Positions 19,039 to 59,186 of a stretch of 64,000 nucleotides of DNA are shown here, one piece after another (position 1 is the stretch's first letter; the number at the start of each line of letters is the position of its first letter). The position numbers and the translations under genes were made by a program. The stretch is from assembly GCA_001797335.1 (NCBI GenBank), contig MGPE01000009.1, positions 246 through 64,245 of the forward strand, written 5' to 3'. Under the pieces are notes generated by a model. That model was not told the origin of the DNA and did not search any database. It worked only from the letters and a program-made list of their open reading frames with translations. The DNA is from Deltaproteobacteria bacterium GWA2_38_16. Lineage in GTDB: Bacteria; Bdellovibrionota; JACOXK01; 2-02-FULL-40-11.

Positions 19039-19088
19039 TTCATTGAAATCATATCACTTTTCGGCATATTCTCCAAAATTCTTTAACG

Positions 19089-19113
19089 TGTCATCCCCAC
19101 GAAAGCGAGGATC
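19089..19113 (-). repeat. Degenerate copy, in reverse orientation, of the REP-like hairpin family GGATYCCCGC-N4-5-GCGGGGATGAC.
   Basis: GTCATCCCCACGAAAGCGAGGATCT is the reverse complement of the consensus with two G-to-A changes. Located in the rsmH upstream intergenic region. Confidence 0.5.
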
Positions 19114-19169
19114 TCTCACTAGAATCTATATATAGTGTATATTAAATTTTATAACGCAAGATATAGCAC

Positions 19170-33175: not shown

Positions 33176-34543
33176 CTAAAAGTTGTAAAACACGTTGGTT
33201 GAAACCGTAAATAAATTATAAGAAGTTGTAGCGGGCTCAGCTGTATTTCTAGCCACCGTAGTATTGAAAGATGCTCCCACCAAGTTATCAAATACCCTCA
33301 CCACCGTTAACCCATAATTTTGCCCAAAATCACGTCTGGCATTGGCATGATTAAAGAATTTCTTCAGTGCCAATTGGCTGGTTAAATTGACATTGGTTCT
33401 AAACCAAAAGGGGAAATTAGTATTGAGATGAAAGGCATGGGTATCTGAATCATAGTTTTTTCCTTCTGCACTAAAGTAAGCATAGTGGTATCCCCCATTC
33501 CAGTGCATTCCTAAGGCATGTACCCCTTCACTTAATCCCCCACTGTATTTAAACCCATCTCTGGAATTAGGTCCTCGGCCTTCTTTATAGTCTTCATAAT
33601 CATAAATGGCATCAATCGTTGTATCCCATCTGGAAGAACAGATAAATTGGATAGAAGGACTAAAAGTATATGCATTTGAAATTTGATCAAAAAATCCTTT
33701 ATTTACGGTACCCGTATTATTAGAAACTGTTTCAACCCCAGAAAAAGCAACATCGTACCCCAAAGGCAAAGAAAGATAGAAAGGGGTATTTTTCCAGGTT
33801 CCTGGAATTTTAACCGCGGAAGCTATTTTATATTTATACGTATCATAGGCTCTGTGATCTGACGTTAGGTTAAAGTTACTAAATAAAGTATTGCTAAAAG
33901 TAAAAACCGATCGATTTCCCAAAAAAGTGGCGTAATTAGGTTCTAATAAAATGTTTACAGCATGACCTTGCTGTTCCCTAACATTAGTATCATTCACAGC
34001 ACCACTGAGAGGATGAAGAGGAACGTTGTTACTAAACATATATCCTAAAGAACTAAACATAGAAAATTTCTTTTCTTTTAAATTTTTGGTCCGATTTAAG
34101 AAGAGTTTTGAAAGCTCTGTTATGCCGCTTTGAAATCCGACATCCGTAGCAACAGCTTTTTGAAGATGATCTTGGGCTAAAGCTTTATTCCTTTTGGCAT
34201 AATAACAAAGACCTGTATAATAATGAAGTTCTTGAGAAAGTTTCGTTTGACCATTTAAACTCTTCGATTTTTCAAAAGAGTCTAAGGCACTGTCCCATTG
34301 ACCCATTTGATAAAACCCCAATCCTTTATGAAAATAGGCTTTGGCTTGGGCATCTTTATCTGTAAATTTTTTGGCTGCTTTTCCATAGTAACCAGCAGCA
34401 TCATCAAATTTTCCAGCTTGCCAAGCTTCATCTCCTTTTTTCATGAATTCATCGCCGGTTATTTCCTTTGAGGCCGCTAACGCGGTGGACATTGAAAAAG
34501 CCATTAAAAACAAAATAACAAAATAAGATAAAGTTTTATTCAT
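33176..34543 (-). CDS. Secreted TPR-repeat protein fused to a putative C-terminal outer-membrane beta-barrel. Candidate polysaccharide export or scaffold component.
   Basis: Signal peptide. TPR-like helices (WQAGKFDDAAGYYGKAAKKF..., YYTGLCYYAKRNKALAQDHLQKA). Aromatic/Gly-rich C-terminal half ending ...NVFYNF. Confidence 0.55.
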   Translation of the reverse strand: MNKTLSYFVILFLMAFSMSTALAASKEITGDEFMKKGDEAWQAGKFDDAAGYYGKAAKKFTDKDAQAKAYFHKGLGFYQMGQWDSALDSFEKSKSLNGQTKLSQELHYYTGLCYYAKRNKALAQDHLQKAVATDVGFQSGITELSKLFLNRTKNLKEKKFSMFSSLGYMFSNNVPLHPLSGAVNDTNVREQQGHAVNILLEPNYATFLGNRSVFTFSNTLFSNFNLTSDHRAYDTYKYKIASAVKIPGTWKNTPFYLSLPLGYDVAFSGVETVSNNTGTVNKGFFDQISNAYTFSPSIQFICSSRWDTTIDAIYDYEDYKEGRGPNSRDGFKYSGGLSEGVHALGMHWNGGYHYAYFSAEGKNYDSDTHAFHLNTNFPFWFRTNVNLTSQLALKKFFNHANARRDFGQNYGLTVVRVFDNLVGASFNTTVARNTAEPATTSYNLFTVSTNVFYNF

Positions 34544-34563
34544 AAGATTAGCCCCCTTATTAT

Positions 34564-34588
34564 GGATTCCCGCCTTCGCGGGAATGAC
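34564..34588 (+). repeat. REP-like hairpin, copy A: GGATTCCCGCCTTCGCGGGAATGAC.
   Basis: Stem TCCCGC/GCGGGA with CTTC loop. Family consensus. Confidence 0.6.
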
Positions 34589-34681
34589 CTGTACGAAAGA
34601 GTGTAAAGGATTTTGGAAAACAAAGTCAACAATAATTGAACAATAATTTGCAAAAAACGTAATGATATTATAGTTTTTTCT

Positions 34682-34707
34682 GGATCCCCGCTCTTGGCGG
34701 GGATGAC
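34682..34707 (+). repeat. REP-like hairpin, copy B: GGATCCCCGCTCTTGGCGGGGATGAC. It directly abuts the ATG of the gene at 34708.
   Basis: Stem CCCCGC/GCGGGG. Ends 1 nt before the start codon. Confidence 0.6.
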
Positions 34708-35520
34708 ATGAAAAAATATTCTCTATTTCTGATCTACTTCATCCTTTTTAATACCGCCCTGGCCGAAGATCGCTGGTCGTATACTTTTTTACCCAATAAA
34801 GGGCGGCTTTTCCCAGGGCTTGTCTCAGACCCCTGGGAAACACAGTGGGCTCTTATTGCATTGAATCGCTACCGACAACATGGAAAGATTGGAGTGGTTG
34901 TTCCCCTCTATAGGGCCCGGAGTGACAAGAAAATAGTACAAATAGGAGTGGATCTTTTAAGTTTTAACCAAACCCGCTATAGAATCCAAGAAGGAGGTGG
35001 ATTTTCTTTAGAAACAACCGATACTAAATTTGGAATCCACACAGAGTATCAAAAAACCCCATGGAATGGGAGAATTGGTCTAGAACATATCAGTGCACAT
35101 CTGGCTGATGGGCTTTTGTGGCCAACCGTTAAAAAAACCAAACAATATTATAGTAGAGAATTTATACAGCTAAATATTTCTTATGATTTTTTGTGGATAC
35201 GTCCCTATTTTGGATTCTTTCAAGCCTTTCACCAAAACTATCCCCCCGATGAAAAACTCTCTACCACCTTTCAGGTGGGGGGAGAACTTTTTTGGCCCTT
35301 ATCCAAAAAAATTTCTTACTTTATTGCACCTGATTGGAAAGCTGGCACAGAATATGATTTTTTTATAAATCAAAGTTACTCTACCGGTTTTCGAATTCAG
35401 GGAGAATATCCCCAGCCTTTCCGGATTTTATTTAACTTTTATGACGGCTATGACCCTAGAGGTGAATTTGCCAATTCACGAACGCGTTTTTGGGGATTTG
35501 GGTTTCAATACTTTATTTAA
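34708..35520 (+). CDS. Secreted hypothetical protein, possibly an outer-membrane beta-barrel.
   Basis: Signal peptide MKKYSLFLIYFILFNTALA. Aromatic-rich sequence ending GFGFQYFI. Confidence 0.5.
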   Translation: MKKYSLFLIYFILFNTALAEDRWSYTFLPNKGRLFPGLVSDPWETQWALIALNRYRQHGKIGVVVPLYRARSDKKIVQIGVDLLSFNQTRYRIQEGGGFSLETTDTKFGIHTEYQKTPWNGRIGLEHISAHLADGLLWPTVKKTKQYYSREFIQLNISYDFLWIRPYFGFFQAFHQNYPPDEKLSTTFQVGGELFWPLSKKISYFIAPDWKAGTEYDFFINQSYSTGFRIQGEYPQPFRILFNFYDGYDPRGEFANSRTRFWGFGFQYFI

Positions 35521-51824: not shown

Positions 51825-52256
51825 ATGTATACGCAATTTACAACCATTCTTCTCTTCTTAATCATTGGTGCTTGTATGGTTCCTCTTATTCTTTTGGTAG
51901 GCCGATATCTCCGCCCGGCCAATCCGGATCCTAAAAAACTATCTACCTATGAGTGCGGGGAACTTCCTAAAGGAAACTCTTGGGTTCAATTTAATTTACG
52001 ATTTTATGTGATCGCCATTTTATTTTTGATTTTTGATGTTGAAATTGCCTTTATGTTTCCAGTGGCTGTAACATTTCGTCAATGGGTTACTTCTTCTCAA
52101 GCCAAAGGAGTGCTCATTTTTAGTGAAATTATTCTTTTTATTGCTATTTTACTAATTGGATTTGTCTACGCCTGGACAAAAGGCGATTTTGAATGGATTA
52201 AGGGTTTACAAAAAAAACAAATAGATCCCCGCTTTCGCGGGGATGACTTAAAATGA
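51825..52256 (+). CDS. nuoA: NADH-quinone oxidoreductase subunit A (ND3).
   Basis: YECGELPKG...LRFYVIAILFLIFDVEIAFMFP signature. The C-terminal residues DPRFRGDDLK are encoded by a REP-like element. Confidence 0.9.
   Translation: MYTQFTTILLFLIIGACMVPLILLVGRYLRPANPDPKKLSTYECGELPKGNSWVQFNLRFYVIAILFLIFDVEIAFMFPVAVTFRQWVTSSQAKGVLIFSEIILFIAILLIGFVYAWTKGDFEWIKGLQKKQIDPRFRGDDLK
52223..52247 (+). repeat. REP-like hairpin, copy C: AGATCCCCGCTTTCGCGGGGATGAC. It overlaps the nuoA 3' end and lies 5 nt before the nuoH ATG.
   Basis: Stem CCCCGC/GCGGGG with TTTC loop. Same family as the copies at 34564, 34682 and 19089. Confidence 0.6.
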
Positions 52257-53359
52257 CATCACTTCCTGAATTTTTAAAAGAATTATTTGAATCTTGGCCT
52301 CTCCTAGGAATCTTACCGGTTTGGTTTTATAGTATTGTGGCTATTTTTGGTCTTCTTTTTCTCTTTTTATTTCCCTTTGCCGGAGTGGCTGTTTACGTTG
52401 AACGAAAAATTGCAGGAGATATTCAAGCCCGCATTGGTCCCAATGTGGTTGGCCCCTATGGAATCTTGCAGTGGATTGCCGATGCATTAAAACTTCTTCT
52501 TAAAGAAGATATTATTCCTACCAACGCTGATAAAAAACTTTTTATTCTTTCTCCCATGCTTATTTTTATAAGTGGTGCCTGTGCCTATGCCGTTATTCCT
52601 TTTGCTGATAATGTTATTTTGGCCAATCTCAATATTGGTATCTTTTATCTCCTGGCTATTACCTCTATGGTTACTTTGGGACTTATCTTAGGAGGATGGG
52701 CATCCAATAACAAATGGTCTCTCTTGGGGGGACTTCGAGCCGCTGCCCAGGTAGTTTCTTATGAAATCCCTGTTGCTTTAAGTATTTTAACCGTTGTTTT
52801 GGTCACGGGAACTTTGGACATGGCTCAAATTGTAAAAATGCAAGGCCCTTTTTACTGGAATATTTTTCATAACCCCTTCTTATTTATTTCAGCCTGTATC
52901 TATTATATAGCAGCTCTGGCAGAAGCTAATCGAACCCCTTTTGATATCCCAGAAGCAGATTCGGAACTGGTTTCAGGCTATAATACTGAATATAGTGGCA
53001 TGCGATTTGCCATCTTTTTTCTCATTGAATACGCTGAGTGCTTTATTATTTGTGCGGTTGCAACCACTCTCTTTTTAGGAGGGTGGCATCTTCCCTTTTT
53101 TGATCTTTCCTCCTTAACCTTGGGACTTCGAATTCCTCTTCAAATCATGGTCTTTATGACAAAATCTATTCTACTACTCCTTACGATGATGTGGATTCGT
53201 TGGACATTACCTCGGTATCGGGTGGATCAGCTGATGAAACTTTGTTGGGAAGTGTTTGTTCCCTTTTCTTTTGCCTGTCTTATTGGAACTGCCTTTTGGA
53301 TGGTGCTATTTAAAGGAAAAGGAATTCCTGAACTTATTTTGGGATTATTTGTATCATGA
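52253..53359 (+). CDS. nuoH: NADH-quinone oxidoreductase subunit H (ND1).
   Basis: VERKIAGDIQARIGPNVVGPYGILQ and the conserved TM loops of NuoH. Confidence 0.93.
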   Translation: MTSLPEFLKELFESWPLLGILPVWFYSIVAIFGLLFLFLFPFAGVAVYVERKIAGDIQARIGPNVVGPYGILQWIADALKLLLKEDIIPTNADKKLFILSPMLIFISGACAYAVIPFADNVILANLNIGIFYLLAITSMVTLGLILGGWASNNKWSLLGGLRAAAQVVSYEIPVALSILTVVLVTGTLDMAQIVKMQGPFYWNIFHNPFLFISACIYYIAALAEANRTPFDIPEADSELVSGYNTEYSGMRFAIFFLIEYAECFIICAVATTLFLGGWHLPFFDLSSLTLGLRIPLQIMVFMTKSILLLLTMMWIRWTLPRYRVDQLMKLCWEVFVPFSFACLIGTAFWMVLFKGKGIPELILGLFVS

Positions 53360-53850
53360 CTTCATACGATAGTTTATTTTATGTATTTGCCGCTGTGACT
53401 ATCATTCCAGCCATTGTCACTGTTTTTCATCCCAATATCCTCTATGCTGCCTTGTCTTTATTTGGTTCTTTTTTTGGCGTTGCAGGAATTTATGTACTTT
53501 TAGGAGCAGATTTTATCGCTGCCACTCAAGTTTTAATTTATGTAGGGGGCATTCTAGTTCTTATTTTATTTGCCGTTATGCTTTCTAAAAATATTTATGG
53601 AATGACCTTTCAAGATGAAAAAAAGAAAAAAATACTCCCTACCCTCTTTGGTATATTGCTCTTGGGATTTCTCATTAAACTCATTACAACGGTTCACTGG
53701 AACACAACTCTTTCAGAAGAAGGTCCCCTTCCCACGACTGCAGCTTTAGGAAATTTACTATTAACAGAGTATCTACTGCCATTTGAACTGGCTTCTGTTT
53801 TATTGTTAGCGGCTTTAATTGGAGCCATCATTTTAGCGAGGAGCAAATGA
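53356..53850 (+). CDS. nuoJ: NADH-quinone oxidoreductase subunit J (ND6).
   Basis: Size, TM pattern and position between nuoH and nuoK. The nuoI gene normally found between nuoH and nuoJ is absent. Confidence 0.85.
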   Translation: MTSYDSLFYVFAAVTIIPAIVTVFHPNILYAALSLFGSFFGVAGIYVLLGADFIAATQVLIYVGGILVLILFAVMLSKNIYGMTFQDEKKKKILPTLFGILLLGFLIKLITTVHWNTTLSEEGPLPTTAALGNLLLTEYLLPFELASVLLLAALIGAIILARSK

Positions 53851-54155
53851 CCGTCGAACTACACCACTACTTAATTTTATCTTCTATCTTGTTTGTACTT
53901 GGTATTATTGGGATTATTTCTCGGAAAAATTCTATTGGAATTTTGATGGGCATTGAACTCGTGATGAATGCCTGTGGAATTAACTTTGTGGCCTTTTCAA
54001 AATACATTGCTTCTGACTTTTCAGGACAAATTTTTGCCTTATTCATTTTTGTCATTGCCGCTGCAGAAGTGGTCGTAGCATTGGCCATTGTGCTAAGAAT
54101 TTACCAAAATAAAGCAACCATCGATATTGAAGAGGTTAAAGATTTAAAATGCTAG
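53847..54155 (+). CDS. nuoK: NADH-quinone oxidoreductase subunit K (ND4L).
   Basis: About 100 aa, three TM helices, with GIELVMNA-type motif. Confidence 0.9.
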   Translation: MTVELHHYLILSSILFVLGIIGIISRKNSIGILMGIELVMNACGINFVAFSKYIASDFSGQIFALFIFVIAAAEVVVALAIVLRIYQNKATIDIEEVKDLKC

Positions 54156-56143
54156 ATCCTTTTATTGTAAAACTTTTCCCAACTTTAGACCCTATGCTTG
54201 TTATTATTTCGGCCATTCTTTTTTCTCCTTTGGTAGGTTTTGTAATTCAATTTTTTATGGGGGAAAAGCTCTTTCGAAAAGGCGATTGGGTATCTCTAGG
54301 CGCTATTTTTATTTCTTGGGTTTTAACTCTCTTTTTATTTTCAGATTTTGTACACTCCCAAAACGCCCATTTTAAGTGGGTCATGTCTTGGCCATGGATT
54401 GCTTTACCCAGTTTTTCTTTAGGAATGGGAATCCTTTTAGACAGCACTACTATTCTCATGCTTTTGGTCATTACAACGGTAAGCTTTCTCGTTCATCTTT
54501 ATTCCACCGGATACATGCAGGGGGATCCCAGATATAGTCGTTTTTTTGCTTATCTTTCTTTCTTTTCTTTTTCGATGATTGGGCTTGTGCTTTCAGATAA
54601 TCTTTTTGCTCTTTATGTTTTCTGGGAATTGGTTGGACTTTCTTCTTATCTTCTCATTGGTTTTTGGTTTGAAAAACCTTCTGCTGCCAATGCCAGTAAA
54701 AAAGCATTTATTGTCACGCGCGTTGGGGATGTAGGAATGTTTATTGGAATTTTAATTATCTTTTTTCAAACCAATGGACTTTTAAAATTTGAAGATATTT
54801 TTTCTTTTCTTTCCAAAAGTTCTTTTAACGGTGAATTTTTGGGTCTTTCTCTTCTAACGTTGGCGGGACTATGCATTTTTATGGGTGCTGTTGGAAAATC
54901 GGCCCAATTTCCCCTTCACATTTGGCTCCCAGATGCCATGGAAGGCCCCACGCCTGTTTCTGCTCTGATTCATGCGGCTACAATGGTGGCAGCAGGAGTT
55001 TATCTGGTTACCCGCATGTTTCCTTTTTTTACCCCAGAAGCTTTAACCTGCATTGCCTATGTAGGCGCCTTTACCGCTATTTTTTCAGCTACGATGGCCT
55101 TAACCCATAACGATATTAAAAAAGTATTGGCTTATTCGACGGTCAGTCAGCTGGGATATATGATGATGGGCCTAGGTGTTGGGGCAACCATAGCCGGATT
55201 TTTTCATTTGGTCACACATGCTGCTTTTAAAGCATGCCTCTTTTTATGTTCAGGAAGTGTTATTCATGCACTTCACACGCAGGATTTAAGAGAAATGGGG
55301 GGACTTCGCAAAAAAATGCCCATTACATTTGTCACCATGCTCATTGCTACATTGGCCATTTCAGGCGTTCCTCTTTTTTCTGGCTTTGTTAGTAAAGACA
55401 TGATTTTGGGAGGAACACTTTCTTTTGTCTCCAATCATCCAAATCACTTTTTAATCCCCATTTTTGGATTTTCCGCTGCGGCTTTAACGGCCTTTTACAT
55501 GTTTAGACTTATTTTTATGACTTTCTTTGGCACCGCTCGCGACTCCAAAAAATTTGAACATGCACATGAAAGCCCTTTTAATATGACGCTTCCTTTAATT
55601 ATTTTAAGTCTTTCATCTTTTGCCATTGTATTTACGCCCCTTCATTTTTGGATTGAACAAGAAGAAATACCTGAAAACATACATCATCTGGCCACCGTTC
55701 TTTCTCTTTTTGTGGCTGGAAGTGGCATTTTACTTTCATATCTTATGTATATGAAAAAAGTTTTAAACCCTGACACTCTGGCTCAACGTTTTAAATATAT
55801 CTATAACACCCTCATCCACCTTTATTGGATTGATGAACTCTATGAATGGGCTATTTTAAATAATGTCGTTCGTCTGAATAATCTTTTAGCTCATTTTGAT
55901 AACCGAGTTATTGATCAAGTGATGGTGGATGGCTGGGCTCCCGTGACCATTCAAACATCAAGAGGTTCTGGCAATTTTGATAATCGAGTTATTGATGAGC
56001 TCTTAGTCGATGGGACAGGACAAATGGTGGGAGCTTCAGGGAAACAAACGGTAAAAATTCAAACTGGGAAAGTGCAACAATATATTTTGGTAGGACTAGG
56101 GTCTGTCTGTGTATTATTAATTCTACTAACGCTTATTTTATGA
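54149..56143 (+). CDS. nuoL: NADH-quinone oxidoreductase subunit L (ND5), with a long C-terminal extension.
   Basis: WLPDAMEGPTPVSALIHAATMVAAGVYL antiporter-like core. 664 aa. C-terminal tandem FDNRVID-x4-VDG motifs. Confidence 0.93.
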   Translation: MLDPFIVKLFPTLDPMLVIISAILFSPLVGFVIQFFMGEKLFRKGDWVSLGAIFISWVLTLFLFSDFVHSQNAHFKWVMSWPWIALPSFSLGMGILLDSTTILMLLVITTVSFLVHLYSTGYMQGDPRYSRFFAYLSFFSFSMIGLVLSDNLFALYVFWELVGLSSYLLIGFWFEKPSAANASKKAFIVTRVGDVGMFIGILIIFFQTNGLLKFEDIFSFLSKSSFNGEFLGLSLLTLAGLCIFMGAVGKSAQFPLHIWLPDAMEGPTPVSALIHAATMVAAGVYLVTRMFPFFTPEALTCIAYVGAFTAIFSATMALTHNDIKKVLAYSTVSQLGYMMMGLGVGATIAGFFHLVTHAAFKACLFLCSGSVIHALHTQDLREMGGLRKKMPITFVTMLIATLAISGVPLFSGFVSKDMILGGTLSFVSNHPNHFLIPIFGFSAAALTAFYMFRLIFMTFFGTARDSKKFEHAHESPFNMTLPLIILSLSSFAIVFTPLHFWIEQEEIPENIHHLATVLSLFVAGSGILLSYLMYMKKVLNPDTLAQRFKYIYNTLIHLYWIDELYEWAILNNVVRLNNLLAHFDNRVIDQVMVDGWAPVTIQTSRGSGNFDNRVIDELLVDGTGQMVGASGKQTVKIQTGKVQQYILVGLGSVCVLLILLTLIL

Positions 56144-56153
56144 GGAGAGATAT

Positions 56154-57707
56154 ATGACATTGCCAAATATCATCATGGATCATTTACTGACAGGAATCGT
56201 CTTTTTACCTGTTATAGGAATATTAATTATCTTACTGCTCCCCAGCAATCGTCCTTCTCTCATCCGCTGGACATCAGCAGCATTCACGTTTCTCCCCTTA
56301 TGCATCGCTGCAGAACTTTTTTTACTTTTTAATCGCAATGAAGCTGGCTTTCAATTTGTAGAAAAATTTTCTTGGATCCCCACTTTTAATATCCATTATT
56401 ATATCGGAACCGATGGTCTTTCCATCACCATGCTTTTATTGACAGCACTTCTTTCTTTCCTTTGTGTTTTTGCCTCGTGGGGTATTACTCAAGGTGTAAA
56501 AGGCTACTTTACAATGTTTCTTCTCTTAGAAGCCGGCATGATGGGTGTGTTTGTTGCCCTTGATTTTTTCCTTTTTTATATTTTTTGGGAACTCATGCTT
56601 TTGCCTATGTATTTTCTCATTGGCATTTGGGGAGGTCCTAAAAAAGAATATGCTGCTATTAAATTCTTTTTATATACCCTCTTTGGTTCTGTCTTAATGC
56701 TCGTTGTCATGTTAGCCTTTTATTTTTACTCTGATCCGCATACGTTTGATTTAGTAGAACTGGCTAGGCCTGGAATCTTAAAAATAAAAGATTTAACCAT
56801 TTTTGGATTGCCTATCACCATTGCTCTTTTTAAAAAGATTTTATTTATTCTTCTTTTTATTGGCTTTGCGATTAAAGTCCCTATTTTCCCTTTTCATACA
56901 TGGTTACCGCTGGCCCACGTAGAAGCTCCTACTCCGATTTCAGTAATTCTTGCCGGAGTGCTTTTAAAAATGGGTGCTTATGGACTGCTTCGAATTAGTT
57001 TTCCTATTTTACCCCAAGAAACCTATTGGTTTTCTTATGCCTTGGCCATTTTAGGACTTATTAATATTGTTTATGGTGCTTTTTGTGCGATGGCTCAAAT
57101 TACGCTTCCTCAAGAAAAAGGAGGCAATGATTGGAAAAAACTCATTGCCTATTCTTCCATTAACCACATGGGCTACGTGCTTTTAGGAATGGCCGCCTTT
57201 ACCGTTGAAGGAATCAATGGGGCTGTCTTTCAAATGTTTAACCACGGCATTACTACCGGCATGCTCTTTCTATTAGTAGGCGTCATTTACGATCGTGTTC
57301 ACCATAGACGCATTGATGGATTTGGTGGGCTTCGAGTTAAAGCTCCTATTTACACATCGATTGTTGCTCTGGCTTTTTTTGCTTCTTTAGGACTTCCTGG
57401 CCTTTCAAGTTTTATTTCAGAAGCGTTGGTCTTTTTAGGATCTTTTAAAGTCTATCCATCTCTCACCATTCTAGCCACGATTGGTATTCTCATTAATGCT
57501 GCTTTTTTCCTGTGGGTTTTACAAAAAATATTCTTAGGGCCTCTGAATACTACGTATAAAGATCTCTCTGATATTAATTTTAGAGAGCTCGTTACCCTAG
57601 TTCCTTTAGCCGTATTGGTCATTTTTTTAGGGGTTTTTCCGATGCCTATTTTAGATTTAATGAAAATAACTTTAGATAAACTTTTAACCGTTATTCAATC
57701 TGTGTAA
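56154..57707 (+). CDS. nuoM: NADH-quinone oxidoreductase subunit M (ND4).
   Basis: Antiporter-like core (WLPLAHVEAPTPISVILAGVLLKMGAYG). Confidence 0.93.
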   Translation: MTLPNIIMDHLLTGIVFLPVIGILIILLLPSNRPSLIRWTSAAFTFLPLCIAAELFLLFNRNEAGFQFVEKFSWIPTFNIHYYIGTDGLSITMLLLTALLSFLCVFASWGITQGVKGYFTMFLLLEAGMMGVFVALDFFLFYIFWELMLLPMYFLIGIWGGPKKEYAAIKFFLYTLFGSVLMLVVMLAFYFYSDPHTFDLVELARPGILKIKDLTIFGLPITIALFKKILFILLFIGFAIKVPIFPFHTWLPLAHVEAPTPISVILAGVLLKMGAYGLLRISFPILPQETYWFSYALAILGLINIVYGAFCAMAQITLPQEKGGNDWKKLIAYSSINHMGYVLLGMAAFTVEGINGAVFQMFNHGITTGMLFLLVGVIYDRVHHRRIDGFGGLRVKAPIYTSIVALAFFASLGLPGLSSFISEALVFLGSFKVYPSLTILATIGILINAAFFLWVLQKIFLGPLNTTYKDLSDINFRELVTLVPLAVLVIFLGVFPMPILDLMKITLDKLLTVIQSV

Positions 57708-57710
57708 ATA

Positions 57711-59186
57711 ATGAGTAATTTAACCTCTAGTTTAATGCTCTATTCTAGCGAAATCATCTTAACGTTGACGCTCTCTTTTGTCTTAATCATCCACATGATT
57801 TCTCGGAATAATTTTCTGACATTTTTAACGGCTCTGGTGGGACTTGCTGCTGCAGCTCTTGCAGTGGGAACGTTATATAGCTATGCCCCTCAATTTTATT
57901 TTTCAAATCACTTAAGCCACGATCCTTTTAGTCTCTTTTTTAAACTCTTTTTCATTGTTGCTACTTTTTTTACGTTTCTTTTTAGCTACCGTTCCTATGA
58001 AATTGACTCCAATAGAACCGCTGAATTTTATCTTCTCACCCTTTCTGTTACCCTAGGCATGTGCACGCTGGTTTCTTCTTTAAATCTACTCACTCTTTAT
58101 CTTTCCTTAGAACTCGTAAGTATTGTTTCTTATGCCCTGGCTGGATTTAGAAAAGAACACCCCGCATCTAATGAAGCAGCCATTAAATATCTTTTATATG
58201 GAGCGTTTGCATCGGGGACCATGCTTTTTGGGATGTCTTTATTATATGGACTCACAGGCTCTTTAAATATTTATTCTATTAATGCTACCTTATCGACCGC
58301 CTTTTTAGATCCTTTGGTTTTATATTCAGTACTTTTGATGATTCTTTTTGGATTTGGATTTAAAATTTCCATGGCTCCCTTCCATATGTGGGCTCCGGAT
58401 GTGTATCATGGAGCGCCCACCCCAACGGCCGCTTTTTTTACCGTAGCCCCCAAGGCTGCCGGATTTGCTGTCTTCATTCGCTTTTTTTATACCGTTTTTG
58501 CCAACATGGGAACTACTCCCAATCAGTGGGATGAACTGACTAATCTCAATTGGGCACTTATTCTTTCTATTTTATCTGCCATTACGATGACCATTGGAAA
58601 TTTAAGTGCTCTTCGGCAAAAAAATGCCAAACGAATGTTGGCGTATTCCAGTATTGCACACGCAGGATATATGCTCATGGGATTTATTGTTTTAAATAAA
58701 CAAGGGCTTTCTTCCGTCTTATTTTATCTAGCTATTTATTTTTTCATGAATTTTGGTGCTTTTTTTGCCGTAGGATTAGCTTCTAACAAATTTAAAAATG
58801 AAGAAATTTCTAGTTTTAAAGGATTGGGGTGGACATCTCCCTTATTGGGAGTTTCTTTGGCCATATTTTTATTTTCTTTAACAGGCATTCCGCCTTTTGG
58901 CGGATTTATTGGGAAAGTATATTTATTTTCAGCACTGGTTCATAAAGAGTTATATTGGCTACTCCTTATTGCTATTTTAAATACCGTCATCTCGCTTTAT
59001 TACTATACGTATTTGGTCCGAGAAATGTTTTTACAAAAATCTAAGGATTCCGAAAGTGTAGCGCTTACCCCCCTTCATACAATAGCGCTACTTCTTTTGG
59101 TTATTCCAACCCTTGTCTTTGGCATTTACTGGGAACCTTTATTAGCCTTTGTCTCCCACTCACTTCAATTTATCGTCACTCCGTAA
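57711..59186 (+). CDS. nuoN: NADH-quinone oxidoreductase subunit N (ND2).
   Basis: MAPFHMWAPDVYHGAPTPTAAFF and AYSSIAHAGYML motifs. Confidence 0.92.
   Translation: MSNLTSSLMLYSSEIILTLTLSFVLIIHMISRNNFLTFLTALVGLAAAALAVGTLYSYAPQFYFSNHLSHDPFSLFFKLFFIVATFFTFLFSYRSYEIDSNRTAEFYLLTLSVTLGMCTLVSSLNLLTLYLSLELVSIVSYALAGFRKEHPASNEAAIKYLLYGAFASGTMLFGMSLLYGLTGSLNIYSINATLSTAFLDPLVLYSVLLMILFGFGFKISMAPFHMWAPDVYHGAPTPTAAFFTVAPKAAGFAVFIRFFYTVFANMGTTPNQWDELTNLNWALILSILSAITMTIGNLSALRQKNAKRMLAYSSIAHAGYMLMGFIVLNKQGLSSVLFYLAIYFFMNFGAFFAVGLASNKFKNEEISSFKGLGWTSPLLGVSLAIFLFSLTGIPPFGGFIGKVYLFSALVHKELYWLLLIAILNTVISLYYYTYLVREMFLQKSKDSESVALTPLHTIALLLLVIPTLVFGIYWEPLLAFVSHSLQFIVTP

Follow-up and report, generated by a model that had tools for sequence, protein, structure and literature searches.

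The four hairpins that recur in the window, i.e., the whole 64-kb stretch of DNA analysed here, are best explained as copies of the Ssn-related motif (SRM): DNA-acting hairpin repeats of the SsnA family, which would have been inserted recently and have spread from SRM-ssnA-SRM units. We give this reading a probability of roughly 0.78. The repeat family is real and its kind is already known (SRM/NTS), the window copies being further members of it. A repeat of an uncultured groundwater bacterium is thereby placed in a family with a known biochemical partner, a placement that heads off mis-annotation of the element as a lineage-specific ribosome-binding or processing signal, or as a genuine C-terminal motif of NuoA. 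The earlier note on this DNA had called the hairpins REP-like, which was right in kind, in that they form a short, dispersed, mostly extragenic palindromic repeat.

A pattern search of the 64 kb recovered all four of the copies previously reported, three of them intact and one decayed, and dinucleotide shuffles of the sequence yielded no match to the hairpin pattern. The copies, and the genes that they adjoin, are as follows.

34565-34588, minus strand: SRM copy 1, T-variant; forward-strand letters GATTCCCGCcttcGCGGGAATGAC
34683-34707, minus strand: SRM copy 2, C-variant with a 5-nt loop; forward-strand letters GATCCCCGCtcttgGCGGGGATGAC
52224-52247, minus strand: SRM copy 3, C-variant; forward-strand letters GATCCCCGCtttcGCGGGGATGAC
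19090-19113, plus strand: decayed SRM copy, GTC-ATCCCCAC-GAAA-GCGAGGAT-C, with two broken stem pairs
33176-34543, minus strand: TPR-repeat gene, whose 5′ region carries copy 1
34708-35520, plus strand: DUF1207 gene, whose ATG abuts copy 2
51825-52256, plus strand: nuoA, 143 aa, with Pfam Oxidored_q4 at residues 21-124
52253-53359, plus strand: nuoH, immediately downstream of copy 3

When oriented, the unit spans ~28 nt and consists of GTC, an 8-bp stem (ATYCCCGC/GCGGGRAT) closing a loop of 4-5 nt, and a final C. Read on the minus strand, copy 1 is GTC-ATTCCCGC-GAAG-GCGGGAAT-C (stem arms at 34566-34573 and 34578-34585), copy 2 is GTC-ATCCCCGC-CAAGA-GCGGGGAT-C and copy 3 is GTC-ATCCCCGC-GAAA-GCGGGGAT-C. 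Between the window copies the stem has undergone a compensatory T:A to C:G change, and both variants occur in the window. Several details of the earlier description needed correction: the stem, given there as 6 bp, has 8 bp; the consensus as written exactly matches one copy only (copy 1 has GGGAATGAC and copy 3 begins AGATCC); and the invariant part of the supposedly invariant GATGAC tail is ATGAC. Its observations on position fared better. Copies 1 and 2 do share one divergent spacer, separated by 94 nt rather than 95 bp, with copy 1 lying 21 nt upstream of the TPR gene ATG (34543, minus strand) and the last base of copy 2 immediately preceding the DUF1207 gene ATG at 34708. The end of copy 3 is 5 nt short of the nuoH ATG (52253), so that two copies do sit 0-5 nt before an ATG, and copy 3 lies within the last 10 codons of nuoA, where it encodes DPRFRGDD as had been proposed. 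The decayed copy is found where rsmH and a DUF6311 gene diverge, in the spacer that separates them.

As DNA hairpins, the intact copies 1, 2 and 3 are predicted to fold with −9.2, −9.5 and −9.8 kcal/mol (z of −4.8, −4.6 and −4.8, respectively), whereas folding is lost in the decayed copy (−3.2 kcal/mol, z −0.7). A search for further copies in the window at up to 4 mismatches found none, and no SRM was present in the 10 kb beyond either window end, which sets the density at a modest 4 copies per 84 kb. We also looked for strain polymorphism: near-identical strains all carry every copy unchanged, copy 1 being identical in 6 strains and the decayed copy in 10. Because the 94 nt that separate copies 1 and 2 are unique sequence, the two were judged not to form a NIME-like composite.

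The family to which these hairpins can be compared was defined from the Neisseria Transformation Sequence (NTS), which contains the dRS3 repeat and has been generalized to Ssn-related motifs found in many phyla (Chenal et al., Nat Commun 2025, PMC11893778). The partner of the SRM is SsnA, a ~94-aa single-domain GIY-YIG nuclease (cd10448), whose biochemistry has been reported for the Neisseria and Wolbachia homologues: it binds the hairpin as ssDNA only and on one strand only, and cuts a few nt upstream, and mutagenesis indicated that the 5′ GTC and the 3′ C matter most for cleavage and binding (PMC11893778). Both of these features are kept in 4/4 window copies. Reverse-complemented, copy 1 reads gGTCATTCCCGCGAAGGCGGGAATCCAt and agrees with the NTS consensus, CGTCATTCCCGCGMAVGCGGGAATCYRG, at 26/28 positions. 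Under the strict Neisseria definition, in which that 28-mer may carry at most 1 mismatch, none of the window copies is an NTS, the best having 2 mismatches; those of copy 1 (2) are both outermost, those of copy 3 (4) include the compensatory pair, and copy 2 has the 5-nt loop. The published SRM expression, HGTCWYN(0-2)YYVSBRHN(0-5)WNVSBRGN(0-2)RNCYNB (PMC11893778), is matched in full by copy 2 (34680-34708) and copy 3 (52221-52248), against a random expectation of ~0.1 matches per window; copy 1 misses it at the first degenerate position only, and the decayed copy fails to match. A search of Rfam at gathering thresholds gave no family matches. Judged by their sequence, the window hairpins are members of the SRM/NTS class of ssDNA-hairpin repeats.

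The element had been thought specific to its lineage, a view overturned by the occurrence of the same 24-mer in at least 119 genome stretches from many phyla, and by its identity with the published NTS/SRM element. These stretches came from a scan of a genome collection with a C-variant pattern that included an AT-run, meant to favour the low-GC source organism; each carries the C-variant with an AT-rich flank, and the source organism was not among the matches listed. Applied to viral contigs, the C-variant pattern with the AT-run gave 0 matches. Motif hosts among the matches listed comprise Patescibacteria lineages, Fibrobacter, Planctomycetes, Omnitrophota, Ignavibacteria, Elusimicrobiota, Legionella, Micavibrio, Rickettsiales, several Bdellovibrionales and others. 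A broader pattern, GTCATYCCCGC-N4-5-GCGGGRATC, was used for scanning viral contigs, and among the matches listed the variable stem pair was T:A in 159, C:G in 24 and mismatched in only 3. Further covarying stems were seen elsewhere (e.g., ATGCCCGC and ATGCCAGC/GCTGGCAT), and the base that follows the palindrome was a C in 241/250 copies elsewhere, among the matches listed. We propose that the nuclease recognises the sequence of the element in addition to its shape, and that this keeps the sequence almost unchanged from phylum to phylum.

When all ORFs adjoining the motif were clustered without bias, the GIY-YIG family ranked first. Using as a phmmer query the GIY-YIG ORF that lies between two motif copies in locus L080 (Pfam PF01541, E = 1.7e-14), we found a ~95-aa GIY-YIG gene (ssnA) directly flanked by the motif in 17/239 loci, including two Bdellovibrionales MAGs. 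In the usual layout, a sense SRM lies just upstream of ssnA, no more than ~90 nt away, and an inverted SRM follows the gene at a distance of 7-92 nt. The published association of SRM with ssnA is thus independently reproduced in MAGs from many phyla. We observed that SRM-ssnA-SRM units often carry the T-variant (ATTCCCGC) on one side and the C-variant (ATCCCCGC) on the other (L164, L200, L151, L238, L214, L146 and L158), a pairing whose frequency is biased because those ssnA loci were chosen for having the C-variant; such T/C pairing would account for both variants coexisting in the window. In one Bdellovibrionales MAG (L175, 1135-1302), three identical SRMs stand in tandem, with a 72-nt period, directly downstream of ssnA.

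Searches by regular expression and phmmer detected no ssnA homologue in the window plus 10 kb on each side (84 kb in total), and among the more than 7,991 clusters that a Bdellovibrionales SsnA matched in a protein search, none could be assigned to the source MAG. In the protein collection, many SsnA homologues come from very short contigs, ~1 kb in length, as would be expected if assemblies break at SRMs, and MAGs may therefore under-report ssnA. We infer that a matching SsnA is, or once was, encoded in the source genome, and that solo copies derive from the ssnA unit.

Comparison with relatives bears on how the window copies arose. Proteins identical to those of the window bear the NCBI name Deltaproteobacteria bacterium GWA2_38_16, and the same genes were found on contigs of at least 4 groundwater MAGs. 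One relative (L254) shares the nuoAHJKLMN cluster and has a NuoA that is 74% identical; its sequence can be aligned to either side of the nuoA-nuoH junction but lacks the ~25 nt that form copy 3, and 17.5 kb of its DNA contain no SRM. DUF1207 orthologues of ~50% identity are present in two others (L255 and L257), the second of which also shares with the window the rsmH neighbourhood and the DUF1207-TPR-ribF-pilS gene order. In neither was an SRM found upstream of the DUF1207 gene, nor upstream of rsmH in L257; scanning metagenome contigs with the DUF1207 protein turned up no relative. The absence of the hairpin at the orthologous nuoA-nuoH, DUF1207 and rsmH sites marks the window copies as insertions, which would be recent. 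With the relatives, they show defined sites cleanly before and after an SRM went in, which is useful for studying the spread of solo SRMs.

The end of NuoA illustrates the consequence of one such event. The Oxidored_q4 domain stops at residue 124, and residues 125-143 (IKGLQKKQIDPRFRGDDLK) form a tail that reads through copy 3, the nuoA stop overlapping the nuoH ATG (ATGA). A NuoA paralogue ends one residue past the conserved W124, and 15 NuoA orthologues (53-75% identity) have short basic tails, DPRFRGDD occurring in 0/15. Comparing NuoA C-termini, as the earlier note had suggested, thus traces the tail to the element: it is the read-through product of the inserted hairpin and no feature of NuoA. 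Peptides like DPRFRGDD or IPAFAGMT at predicted protein ends should accordingly be taken as hairpin translations rather than as conserved protein features.

Placement relative to genes was assessed over 234 copies in at least 119 genome loci, with genes called crudely from long ORFs. Among the matches listed, 175/234 copies (75%) are intergenic, non-coding DNA making up ~16% of the sequence, and only 28/234 lie deep in an ORF; in the window, no copy lies deep in a gene. The intergenic preference is real and family-wide. Elsewhere, convergent spacers are enriched and divergent spacers depleted for SRMs, while 3/4 window copies occupy divergent spacers, which the family tends to avoid elsewhere. 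The strand of the element showed no bias with respect to local GC skew (113:121) or to majority gene orientation (71:68), and this balance lends no support to a replication-strand preference.

Given that two copies abut start codons, the hairpins could alternatively be RNA cis elements placed at cistron junctions, where they would contribute to the processing or stability of mRNA or to translational coupling, and where the GGGGATGAC tail would provide a ribosome-binding region. Copy 2 ends on the base that precedes the ATG at 34708 and copy 3 lies 5 nt before that of nuoH, where, given the overlap of the nuoA stop with the nuoH start, ribosomes finishing nuoA would melt the hairpin, making coupling plausible. 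As RNA, moreover, the window hairpins are predicted to be stable, at −15.7 to −19.3 kcal/mol (copy 2 being the −19.3), and the spacer between copies 1 and 2 contains two weak hexamer pairs of sigma-70-like type (34600-34674), from which divergent transcripts would each begin with one of the hairpins at the extreme 5′ end, although such promoter-like hexamers are at chance level (2 vs 1.1 ± 0.9 expected; not significant). Across the family, however, the start codon of an ORF 85 aa or more in length falls 0-5 nt past the GATGAC tail in only 2/234 copies (0.9%) among the matches listed, compared with 2.7% in a random intergenic control, and the G-run of the proposed ribosome-binding region is fully base-paired in the RNA stem, where it would block rather than promote ribosome binding. 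Nor does the element follow transcription: in tandem intergenic regions it lies sense and antisense at 54:46, even though its asymmetric flanks are conserved, a combination that points to a strand-specific reader of DNA and not of mRNA. Relatives have the same genes at these junctions without the hairpin, the same 24-mer stands beside unrelated genes in many phyla, and Rfam offers no family match. With no clustering at starts, no transcription-strand bias and absence at orthologous sites, a role in ribosome binding, processing or coupling is unsupported as the family's reason to exist, and the RNA-level functions that the earlier note had envisaged seem to us unlikely to explain it. The closeness of the copies to start and stop codons probably reflects instead their having landed in short spacers.

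Local effects are a separate matter. In the window, 2/3 intact copies abut a start codon (at 0 and 5 nt), a proximity that the control rate of 2.7% per copy would seldom produce, and local co-option is therefore possible. A side effect on nuoA/nuoH coupling or on 5′ UTRs is likewise possible, though the data need none. Intrinsic termination was considered and rejected: a terminator test detected none at copies 1 and 2 (scan of 34450-34800), and along the nuoA strand the letters after copy 3 are GACTTAAAATG, which supply no T-run. In the direction antisense to nuoA, CTATTTGTTTTTTTT comes after copy 3 (52224-52262, minus strand), and read that way the copy resembles an intrinsic terminator for antisense transcription.

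Other explanations place the hairpins among different mobile or repetitive elements. They might owe their persistence mainly to IS110-family or phage recombinases, which would use them for attachment or as targets, a reading that is compatible with the SRM explanation. In Neisseria, dRS3 is such a site for filamentous prophages. A ~326-aa ORF family that looks like a candidate IS110-type transposase lies near the motif in 7 loci (e.g., L008 1198-2178), and dRS3 has been reported as the target of a specific phage recombinase (PMC11893778). Near the window copies, by contrast, there is no phage, IS or recombinase gene, and each copy stands by itself as a 24-nt unit, no inserted element adjoining it, which leaves this reading distinctly unlikely. 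Still less probable, and in our view very unlikely, is that they are classical REP/REPIN elements mobilised by RAYT, an IS200/IS605-type tyrosine transposase. The overall look is alike, both being short GC-rich extragenic palindromes with an asymmetric 5′ head, other loci hold inverted doublets, and the analogy with REPs was drawn for SRM by PMC11893778 itself. Against this stand the near-exact match to the NTS sequence and the identity of the recurrent neighbour, which is a GIY-YIG nuclease; no recurrent cluster of neighbouring ORFs was Y1-type (RAYT)-like, most clusters being unnamed. Moreover, the typical REP head is GTAG or GTGG, and all copies have GTCA.

A degenerate CRISPR repeat of type I-E-like kind was also considered, together with chance palindromes. 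Type I-E repeats share the whole CCCCGC-N4-GCGGGGAT hairpin, and some published CRISPR repeats contain CGCGGGGATG, part of the same 3′ arm and tail core. The window copies, however, are solitary or 94 nt apart and form no regular array, no cas genes were found among the window ORFs examined, and chance is contradicted by the absence of any match in the shuffles. Copy spacing and the shuffle controls together refute both ideas, whose joint probability we regard as vanishingly small.

These considerations return us to SRM copies recognised by an SsnA-family nuclease, for which we propose the following mechanism. The SRM would act on DNA, not on RNA: whenever its sense strand becomes single-stranded, in replication, repair or DNA uptake, the hairpin would fold, and a small SsnA-family GIY-YIG endonuclease would bind the stem and the 3′ C and cut a few nt upstream of GTC. 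Copies would originate from IS-like SRM-ssnA-SRM units and be retained at sites where the damage is slight, for the most part intergenic ones; one such insertion would have extended nuoA and thereby brought its stop into overlap with the nuoH start. The identity of the motif, the stability and covariation of the hairpin, its spread across phyla, its adjacency to ssnA, its absence in relatives and its lack of start or strand preference come from our own analysis, and the binding and cleavage of ssDNA by SsnA are taken from PMC11893778.

A further-reaching version of this proposal, which we consider unlikely, would make the solo hairpins non-autonomous derivatives of an IS-like SRM-ssnA-SRM element that moves as ssDNA by means of its GIY-YIG nuclease, two of them (at nuoA-nuoH and at the DUF1207 gene) having been co-opted by the host. 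If true, this would constitute an undemonstrated class of transposon, moving through single-stranded DNA. Copy 3 would then enforce coupling of nuoA to nuoH, the nuoH ribosome-binding region being held in the stem and opened by upstream ribosomes only, and copy 2 would form the whole 5′ leader of the DUF1207 gene.

The genes around the copies presented features of their own. Two paralogous nuoA-H-J-K-L-M-N clusters lie a few kb apart, one in the window (51825-59186) and the other ~4.7 kb past its right end (L131 15958-21209), with NuoA proteins that are 41% identical; both clusters encode the membrane arm only, with no nuoB-G or nuoI between nuoA and nuoH. Just outside the window, upstream of its left end, ligA has beside it a locus for a bacterial microcompartment, comprising BMC and EutN/CcmL shell genes and an aldehyde dehydrogenase (L127 2122-5995). 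The dcw cluster begins at rsmH with no mraZ upstream (19039-19169); the divergent spacer at that point, which contains the decayed SRM instead, faces the DUF6311 gene.

Among known systems, the window hairpins most resemble the SRM/NTS elements (PMC11893778), with which they share a nearly identical sequence (26/28 for copy 1), the same 8-bp palindrome, a 4-nt loop, the 5′ GTC and the 3′ C, as well as rarity within genes, occurrence in many phyla and, in other genomes sampled, the SRM-ssnA-SRM layout. They differ from the Neisseria NTS in that no ssnA occurs in the 84 kb of the source genome examined, and from the Neisseria T-variant in that most window copies are of the C-variant (ATCCCCGC), one of them with a 5-nt loop. 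The density of SRMs in the source genome is low, unlike in pathogenic Neisseria, and the source itself, a free-living groundwater MAG of deltaproteobacterial type with 36% GC, is no host-associated bacterium.

The REP/REPIN elements and their RAYT transposases, reportedly described in E. coli and Pseudomonas by Nunvar in 2010 and by Bertels and Rainey in 2011, offer a second comparison. REPs and SRMs alike are short extragenic GC-rich hairpins with an asymmetric head, dispersed between genes and depleted from promoter-bearing spacers, and each is served by a single small enzyme that recognises an ssDNA hairpin and whose gene is flanked by the repeats. The SRM partner is a GIY-YIG nuclease, however, whereas RAYT is an HUH/Y1 transposase; the SRM head is GTCA and not GTAG, and the SRM sequence is conserved across phyla, whereas REPs are species-specific. 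Small palindromic elements that can alter the expression of neighbouring genes also include the Rickettsia palindromic elements (RPE) and the Correia elements and NIMEs of Neisseria. At ~28 nt, SRMs are unlike the RPE and Correia elements, which span 100-150 bp and have terminal inverted repeats; they are like them in that they can insert at gene ends and be translated there, as in the NuoA tail described here.
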